DNA of 4,271 nucleotides from IMG/VR virus record IMGVR_UViG_2648501110_000019; one strand, 5' to 3'. The DNA comes from a virus. Its lineage: Duplodnaviria; Heunggongvirae; Uroviricota; Caudoviricetes. The notes under the pieces are model-generated. The model was not told the DNA's origin and ran no database searches. It was given only the letters and a program-made list of their open reading frames with translations. Of this stretch, positions 2,266-2,384 are shown piece after piece. Position 1 is the stretch's first letter. Each line of letters opens with the position of its first letter. The position numbers and the translations under genes are program-made.

Positions 2266-2287
2266 AATCGCATCTCCTATTGAACGC

Positions 2288-2316
2288 ATAATAACAACAG
2301 GAAAAGCGATATTCAA
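2288..2316 (-). promoter_or_regulatory. Candidate PR-like promoter for the Cro-like gene
   Basis: On the minus strand: -35 TTGAAT (plus 2311-2316), 17-bp spacer, -10 TATTAT (plus 2288-2293). Predicted start lies just upstream of the AGGAG RBS and ATG 2265. Prediction from hexamer match only. Confidence 0.35.
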
Positions 2317-2332
2317 CGTTAAACATAGAATA

Positions 2333-2352
2333 TTTATCGGAAAGCCGATAAA
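2333..2352. promoter_or_regulatory. Perfect 20-bp palindrome TTTATCGG-AAAG-CCGATAAA, candidate operator
   Basis: Read directly at 2333-2352: 8-bp arms that are exact reverse complements around a 4-bp centre. It lies between the divergent repressor and cro starts, immediately downstream of a TAGAAT -10-like hexamer (2326-2331) on the repressor strand. Confidence 0.5.
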
Positions 2353-2384
2353 CTAGCCAAGATAGAGAGGGGAGGAAAATCGCA

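Follow-up and report, generated by a model that had tools for sequence, protein, structure and literature searches.

A candidate OR3-like operator and its recurrence in the immunity region of a probably defective lambdoid prophage

Introduction

The closest described counterparts of the locus considered here are the immunity regions of lambda, of 434 and of the prophage CP-933P. As in lambda, its cI and cro genes are divergent, dyads are found between them and again at PL, the cI-proximal dyad overlaps the predicted cI promoter as OR3 overlaps PRM, and the repressor carries an S24 domain through which it would be cleavable during the SOS response. The sharing of the dyads by CI and Cro is probable in the present case. 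However, the window (i.e., the whole stretch of 4,271 nucleotides that was analysed) differs from lambda in several respects. Its site is a 14-bp dyad of the form 5-N4-5 with an even axis, whereas the lambda site is 17 bp long. It lacks three evenly spaced OR sites, having none of the OR2 type, and possesses two OL sites instead of three. Furthermore, its cI mRNA has a predicted leader with a Shine-Dalgarno sequence, its Cro belongs to the all-helical YdaS type and OL lies only ~0.8 kb from OR.

Among solved structures, the closest to the N-terminal domain of CI is the 434 repressor (E 4.5e-5, residues 4-62). As expected of homologues, the CI recognition helix AQSSVNQ aligns with TQQSIEQ of 434 R1-69. 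Both systems have a 14-bp operator and similar recognition helices in CI and Cro. The Gln aligned with Gln28 of 434 is kept in all the relatives examined, and all their half-sites start with A; the 434 co-crystal structures reportedly give the pairing of Gln28 with adenine its structural meaning. The resemblance has limits, since the HTH is only ~35% identical to that of 434, which has three OR sites. Moreover, the operators do not follow the ACAA-N6-TTGT pattern of 434 but read ATCGG-N4-CCGAT, with a 5-4-5 partition.

The prophage CP-933P, which carries the PaaR2/YdaS/YdaT system, also encodes a YdaS-family Cro analogue (PF15943) whose gene diverges from the repressor gene, has shared operators over PRM and PR, and possesses a PL with OL sites (PMC8630535). 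Its YdaS-family Cro binds the PRM-side operator first (PMC8630535). The operators of CP-933P are 18-bp repeats with the consensus half GTTTAGTAA (PMC8630535), from which those of the window differ. In addition, the window repressor is a 230-aa protein with an S24 domain, and no YdaT homologue was found after the window cro gene: the ORF located there, ORF102, does not match YdaT and is assigned to phrog_852, a family of unknown function.

No CI more than 52% identical was found among the phages of the collection searched, and a literature search for the operator strings retrieved no paper giving the site sequences.

Genes and Genomic Setting

The CI-like repressor (2385..3077, plus strand, 230 aa) combines an N-terminal 434-type HTH with a C-terminal S24 self-cleaving peptidase domain, as indicated by matches to Peptidase_S24 (E 7.5e-17) and to HTH families and by its assignment to the repressors of phrog_4 in PHROGs (E 1.4e-53). 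The Cro-like protein (1978..2265, minus strand, 95 aa) belongs to the YdaS family (PF15943, E 1e-14; phrog_35) and gives weak matches with solved Cro proteins. Thus, as in other lambdoid repressor/cro pairs, divergent genes encoding an HTH and S24 repressor and a Cro flank a short intergenic region. In agreement with the original prediction, 2266-2384 (119 bp) is exactly the gap between them, the start codon of the cro-like gene being the complement of 2263-2265 and the ATG of the cI-like gene lying at 2385. The Cro-like protein is longer in the window than in relatives (95 aa instead of 75-77 aa). It carries a C-terminal extension (1978-2060) past the conserved ...LFPHP motif, and this extension overlaps the start of ORF102 (2015).

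The cI transcript would end at an intrinsic terminator (3096..3113, plus strand) with a 7-bp stem including 5 GC pairs, a T8 run and a folding energy of -14 kcal/mol. The only Rfam match, a sub-threshold one to Trp_leader, falls on this terminator. Beyond it begins a PL-like operon, whose first gene (3221..3631, plus strand) encodes a 136-aa XRE-type HTH protein (HTH_3, E 2.3e-10) that receives only generic labels from NCBIfam and PHROGs (XRE/DicA/'CII-like'). This gene occupies the 'N position' of the PL operon. It is a mosaic with a joint near 3428: residues 77-136 are 100% identical in the heteroimmune phage phi467, whereas identity falls to only ~30% in the portion of the N-terminal region that can be aligned (about residues 17-76). 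This suggests that the N-terminal domain travels with the immunity cassette and that the HTH serves as a recombination joint.

The region 1416-4174 of the window shares 99.7% identity with a prophage of E. coli E110019 (L001), whose genes occur in the order integrase, early-left genes, 136-aa HTH gene, cI / cro, ORF102, helicase, primase, Q, lysis and terminase. The layout of phage phi467 is the same. From this order, the plus strand of the window corresponds to the 'leftward' direction in lambda. By comparison with the E110019 prophage, the window is devoid of ~9.5 kb, with a junction at 1416-1417 (L001 2544 to 12001). Thus, 1077-1417 matches L001 2204-2544, near the YlcI/YnfO gene, and 1416-4174 matches L001 12001-14760. 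The absence of these ~9.5 kb implies that the helicase, primase, Q and lysis genes are missing from the window copy, which, judging from this comparison, is probably a defective prophage that has retained its immunity region. Two other loci (L012 and L018) have the same deleted arrangement as the window.

Other features of this neighbourhood deserve mention. The stretch 1416-1862, which in E110019 lies between ORF102 and the helicase gene, has no convincing gene, and phages of Yersinia, Cronobacter and E. coli share it at 85-90% identity. It includes a pyrimidine-rich tract with two tandem copies of CCCCCCTTA (1581-1598) and may be an origin or another cis element. On the other side of the junction, genes for a DUF3950 small protein (328-468) and for a protein with a TonB C-terminal domain (601-942) show ~94% identity with Stx1a-converting phages and constitute moron-like cargo beside the deletion junction.

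The Intergenic Inverted Repeat and Its Recurrence

The sequence of 2333-2352 is TTTATCGGAAAGCCGATAAA. Its arms, TTTATCGG (2333-2340) and CCGATAAA (2345-2352), are perfect 8-bp inverted complements separated by AAAG. It had been presented as an exact 20-bp palindrome; the arms are indeed perfect, but the central AAAG is asymmetric and not self-complementary, so that the element is an 8+4+8 inverted repeat. Perfect inverted repeats with 8-bp arms and a spacer of at most 10 nt are found in ~1.5% of random 119-bp sequences of the same composition, and ~0.9 are expected by chance in the whole window. The repeat taken on its own is therefore only modestly unusual. Its weight comes from its recurrence and conservation, not from its symmetry alone. 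To our knowledge, it includes no motif of a host transcription factor.

The window contains one other perfect inverted repeat with 8-bp arms, AGAATAAG-T-CTTATTCT (948-964), which precedes by 20-36 nt the likely start (928, minus strand) of a gene encoding a lipoprotein-like protein with a TonB_C domain. This repeat may have a regulatory role or form a hairpin in the leader. In addition, an imperfect palindrome, ATATTCAACGTT/AACATAGAATAT (2309-2333), was considered as an operator and rejected, its right arm not being conserved in close variants; the conserved part of it is the -35 region of the cro promoter.

Motifs related to the intergenic repeat had been pointed out near the downstream promoter, and they are indeed present there: TCGATAAA at 3131-3138, CCGATT at 3139-3144 and AATCGG at 3154-3159. 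They were described as being in the opposite relative orientation to the halves of the repeat. This is true of the pair that was chosen, but that pair joins the right half of one site (3130-3143) to the left half of another (3155-3168). Each of these two sites shares the 5-N4-5 geometry of the intergenic repeat. Once the motifs are re-paired in this way into two sites of the same geometry, the idea that two regulators share a core, or that one regulator binds in two geometries, loses its basis.

When the window was scanned with the degenerate pattern ATMGG-N4-CCKAT allowing at most 1 mismatch, four matches were found, starting at 2267, 2336, 3130 and 3155, against 0.36 expected, and none of 200 shuffled sequences reached four. 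All of them are within the two regulatory regions, and the same four sites are the only matches at this threshold in the 26.7-kb E110019 segment. It should be emphasized that the pattern was written after the sites had been seen; this concern is answered by an unbiased search in which all 1024 5-mer dyads were scored over 2266-2384 and 3127-3211. The OL interval was started at 3127, in order to prevent a palindrome formed by the T-run and A-run of the cI terminator (TTTTTT-GGG-AAAAAA) from swamping the search. With a 4-nt spacer, ATCGG came first for OR and OL taken together, with a score of 9 compared with 3.13 +/- 1.18 (a score reached by 1/1000 random sets). Several dyads of one consensus are thus present at OR and again at the promoter on the PL side.

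Candidate Operators and Predicted Promoters

Three promoters were predicted around these sites. The weak PRM-like promoter of cI (2326..2354, plus strand) would comprise a -35 element TAGAAT (2326-2331), a 17-nt spacer and a -10 element TAAACT (2349-2354); its hexamers have only 3/6 and 4/6 matches to the consensus, and it was assigned only from a register conserved among relatives (see next section). TAGAAT was also considered as the -10 element of cI, but its final T varies and it is better interpreted as the -35 element of the conserved register. The predicted cI leader extends over ~30 nt after the -10 element and includes a GGGAGG Shine-Dalgarno sequence. The PR-like promoter of cro (2288..2316, minus strand), detected by a consensus scan, has a -35 element TTGAAT (2316-2311), a 17-nt spacer and a TG-extended -10 element TATTAT (2293-2288), i.e., 9/12 consensus matches plus the TG extension. 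The third, a strong PL-like promoter of the early-left operon (3143..3171, plus strand), consists of TTGACA (3143-3148), 17 nt and TATTAT (3166-3171), with 11/12 matches. It follows the cI terminator, and in relatives its position with respect to cI and int is that of lambda PL. Repressor operators are therefore expected there, a link that the original prediction had missed.

Five candidate operators can be placed on this map. The core of the intergenic repeat, ATCGG-AAAG-CCGAT (2336-2349, within 2333..2352), is the cI-proximal one, OR-A, and is located in the spacer of the predicted cI promoter, i.e., in an OR3-type position. OR-B, ACAGG-AAAA-GCGAT (2297..2310), is a probable weak operator in the spacer of the leftward cro promoter, where it adjoins the -35 element; it has 2 mismatches to the degenerate pattern, was found once this number was allowed, and corresponds in position to S1, a site of the sister family described below. 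OR-C, ATCGC-ATCT-CCTAT (2267..2280), which has 1 mismatch and has analogues in sister families, would cover about +1 to +15 of the cro transcript and overlaps the ribosome-binding site of cro. On the other side of cI, OL-a, ATCGA-TAAA-CCGAT (3130..3143, 1 mismatch), abuts and overlaps the -35 element of the PL-like promoter, and OL-b, ATCGG-CAAA-CCTAT (3155..3168, no mismatch), covers part of its spacer and the first 3 nt of its -10 element. The sites thus overlap, in silico, core elements of the predicted PR, PRM and PL, as judged from the promoter scan and from the register found in 10 immunity types.

It had been concluded from the intergenic region that only one clear operator was visible and that the three tandem operators of lambda OR were missing. 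There is indeed one perfect site, but two more degenerate ones lie over the cro promoter. The second statement is partly right, since the middle site of relatives is absent in the window. The centres of the three OR sites (2273.5, 2303.5 and 2342.5) are unevenly spaced, 30 and 39 bp apart, instead of forming an evenly spaced tandem, and no site was found at the OR2 position in the window family.

Conservation in Close Variants

Among close variants of the locus, whose CI proteins are 89-100% identical, the intergenic region occurs in 13 distinct versions and the PL region in 21. Of the 13 intergenic versions, 12 keep the 14-bp core of OR-A unchanged, substitutions being confined to the outer flanks. 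The most distant variant, L027, reads TCTATCGGAATGCCTATAGA; its outer changes are symmetric, and its single core change, from G to T, converts CCGAT into CCTAT, a half-site also seen at OL-b and OR-C. In the same way, OL-a and OL-b are conserved in the 21 versions of the PL region, in which the 5 nt between the -35 element and OL-b are hypervariable. In several variants, the C at position 3157 is replaced by A, which makes OL-b a perfect dyad (AATAGG-TAAA-CCTATT). Some variants of OR-B, ATAGG-TAAA-TCGAT and ATAGG-AAAA-GCGAT, are closer to the consensus than the window copy. OR-C is invariant across all variants, a conservation that is confounded by its overlap with the Shine-Dalgarno sequence of cro.

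Half-Sites, Recognition Helices and Promoter Register in Heteroimmune Relatives

More distant relatives were supplied by scans of viral contigs; a scan of genome contigs with CI gave only 4 distant loci. Prophages whose CI is 43-51% identical to that of the window show the same 5-N4-5 design with other half-sites: ATCGC-N4-GCGAT (L091, L092 and L029-L033), ATAGC-N4-GCTAT (L003 and L080), ATAAC-N4-GTTAT (L004), ATACG-N4-CGTAT (L005) and ACAAC-N4-GTTGT (L035). These heteroimmune relatives have 2 to 4 sites between cro and cI. For example, L003, L004 and L080 carry three OR sites 24-25 bp apart, and L091 has three sites at PL, with the layout [site]TGAC...[site]TAT, as in the window.

The ATCGC type, found in the prophages of E. 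coli EC2001 and HH107 and in IMG/VR contigs, is a sister of the window type. Its CI, also of 230 aa, is 51% identical to that of the window; its Cro recognition helix is almost identical, and the operator design and the registers at PRM and PL are the same. The two types differ by position 5 of the half-site, which is C in the sister and G in the window, the C co-occurring with Lys or Arg instead of Gln at position 34 of CI. They also differ by the number of OR sites, four in the sister, including an OR2-type site that is absent in the window family. Among 80 additional ATCGC-type loci (49 unique sequences), the half-sites of the cI-proximal sites S2 and S3 are almost invariant whereas their 4-nt spacers vary freely.

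The recognition helices of CI and Cro change with the half-site and, within each phage, resemble each other. The half-site ATCGG of the window is associated with the CI helix AQSSVNQ and the Cro helix AQSTVCD, and ATCGC with AQSSVNK and AQSTV/ICD. For the other types, CI and Cro have, respectively, AQPSVWK and KQPSVWA (ATAGC), SQPAIQK and SQPAVHK (ATAAC), AQPTIWR and AQPTVWR (ATACG), or SQAAIQK and SQAAVQK (ACAAC). Six types of half-sites thus match six types of recognition helices, for CI and Cro alike. This covariation in both proteins argues that CI and Cro both read the dyads. That the helices of lambdoid Cro proteins correlate with the half-sites had already been established (PMC6649833 and its reference 7).

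The register of the cI-proximal site is also shared. In 10 immunity types, this site begins 4 nt beyond a hexamer resembling a -35 element and ends on the base with which a TAxxxT -10 element opens. In five of them (L003, L004, L005, L035 and L080), the -10 element lies only 6-7 nt before the ATG of cI, from which a leaderless cI mRNA is predicted, like the one that lambda reportedly has (PMC8630535). In the window and ATCGC types, the predicted cI leader is 26-30 nt long and includes a Shine-Dalgarno sequence.

Alternative Explanations

Several other readings of the repeat were weighed against that of an operator read by CI and Cro. The original prediction proposed that the core shared with the downstream promoter is inverted there (CCGATT-N9-AATCGG), which would imply either that another regulator, for instance the 136-aa HTH protein, shares the core or that one regulator binds in two geometries. 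CCGATT (3139-3144) and AATCGG (3154-3159) are indeed mutual reverse complements, and three HTH proteins are encoded nearby. However, each motif has a partner at the standard 4-nt spacing, and in the unbiased search at the 9-nt spacing that this reading requires, the best dyad scored 4, which is near the random mean of 3.13 +/- 1.18 (obtained in the 4-nt search), and nothing rose above noise. The natural change from AATCGG to AATAGG destroys the inverted pairing while it perfects the standard dyad, and the sister family shows the same inverted by-product of two adjacent operators. The 136-aa protein itself is an unlikely binder of the dyads, because its HTH is 100% identical in phi467, whose CI is only 38% identical to that of the window and whose OR and PL regions carry unrelated repeats. 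This reading thus appears very improbable. The same holds for an RNA hairpin, whether a minus-strand terminator or stabiliser or a structure of the cI mRNA leader, although a terminator scan flags the minus strand at 2353-2332 and the hairpins fold at -8.1 and -9.3 kcal/mol (z about -3). The stem has only 3 GC pairs and is followed by ATTCTATGTT instead of a T-run, unlike an intrinsic terminator. Furthermore, the repeat lies upstream of the cro promoter on the minus strand and of the predicted cI start on the plus strand, and hence outside the predicted transcripts, and it has no Rfam match to a known RNA family. The G-to-T change of L027 breaks a pair of the stem and yet yields a half-site seen at OL-b and OR-C, and a hairpin would leave the recurrence over two other promoters unexplained.

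Perfect inverted repeats with 8-bp arms should arise by chance about once in 4.3 kb, and a fortuitous repeat, or the site of a host factor with no part in the phage switch, could be envisaged on this ground. Nevertheless, the chance probability is ~0.015 for the intergenic region alone, and recurrence, conservation and the register kept across the family argue so strongly against chance that we give this explanation almost no credence. An operator for a single protein deserves somewhat more attention: the repeat could be bound by Cro only, or be the main site of CI autorepression in a switch without positive autoregulation. This would fit the absence of an OR2-type site and the fact that OR-A is far nearer to perfect symmetry than the sites over PR. 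Moreover, the Cro proteins of N15 and phiKO2 bind OR3 almost exclusively (PMC6649833). Still, in each family the CI and Cro helices are alike and vary in step with one and the same half-site. This pattern favours sites used by both proteins, as is the case in 434 and lambda, and makes a single-protein operator unlikely.

Proposed Switch

The preferred reading is therefore that of a site common to both proteins. The repeat is likely to be the cI-proximal, OR3-like operator of a lambdoid prophage switch in which dimers of CI and of Cro would read a 14-bp dyad present at five sites. That it governs the choice between repressor and Cro expression, as originally suggested from its position, is very probable, considering that the dyad recurs at the downstream promoter, that its core is conserved and that the dyads of heteroimmune relatives are in the same register. 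The analysis yielded the sites themselves, the extent to which they are conserved, their register relative to promoter-like hexamers and the helix covariation; from them we infer which protein would bind which site, in which order, and where transcription would start.

The switch may be envisaged as follows. The CI-like repressor and the Cro-like protein, each as a dimer, would recognise AT(C/A)GG-N4-CC(G/T)AT through their related HTH recognition helices. As OR-A fills the spacer of the weak cI promoter, a protein bound there would occlude this promoter and block cI transcription, the role played by OR3 in lambda. During lytic growth, Cro on OR-A would shut off repressor synthesis, and CI in excess would exert negative autoregulation through the same site. 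In the lysogen, CI bound to OR-B, OR-C, OL-a and OL-b would silence PR and PL. RecA-stimulated self-cleavage of the S24 domain during the SOS response would then release the lytic operons and flip the switch.

Two features of this arrangement set it apart. Judged by lambda, it is odd that the most symmetric site should lie on the promoter of the repressor itself. Furthermore, the absence from the window of an OR2-type site that is present in relatives bears on the order of occupancy and on self-activation by CI.

Significance for the Prophage Family

The repeat is most likely an ordinary, previously undescribed example of the textbook lambda-like switch, one of five sites distributed over three promoters. 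The operator map leaves the understanding of such switches unchanged. What it provides is a working map, with five putative sites and three predicted promoters, for an uncharacterised and widespread immunity type of E. coli prophages, and it predicts which prophages are homoimmune.

The window type, with Gln34 and G5, and the ATCGC type, with Lys34 and C5, also offer a natural pair for the evolution of immunity specificity. The window type might have split from its sister by a symmetric change from C5 to G5 together with the replacement of Lys/Arg34 by Gln34 in CI (a residue aligned with Gln33 of 434), the Cro helix remaining unchanged (AQSTVCDW). The window family has, in addition, lost the OR2-type site, so that its switch may operate by pure negative autoregulation through a perfect OR3-type site, without self-activation by CI. 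We regard this scenario as a whole as rather doubtful. The link between Gln34/Lys34 and G5/C5 rests on two clades, i.e., on a single evolutionary event. If the scenario were true, CI would distinguish the two sets of operators and Cro would not, which would result in asymmetric cross-talk between co-resident prophages.
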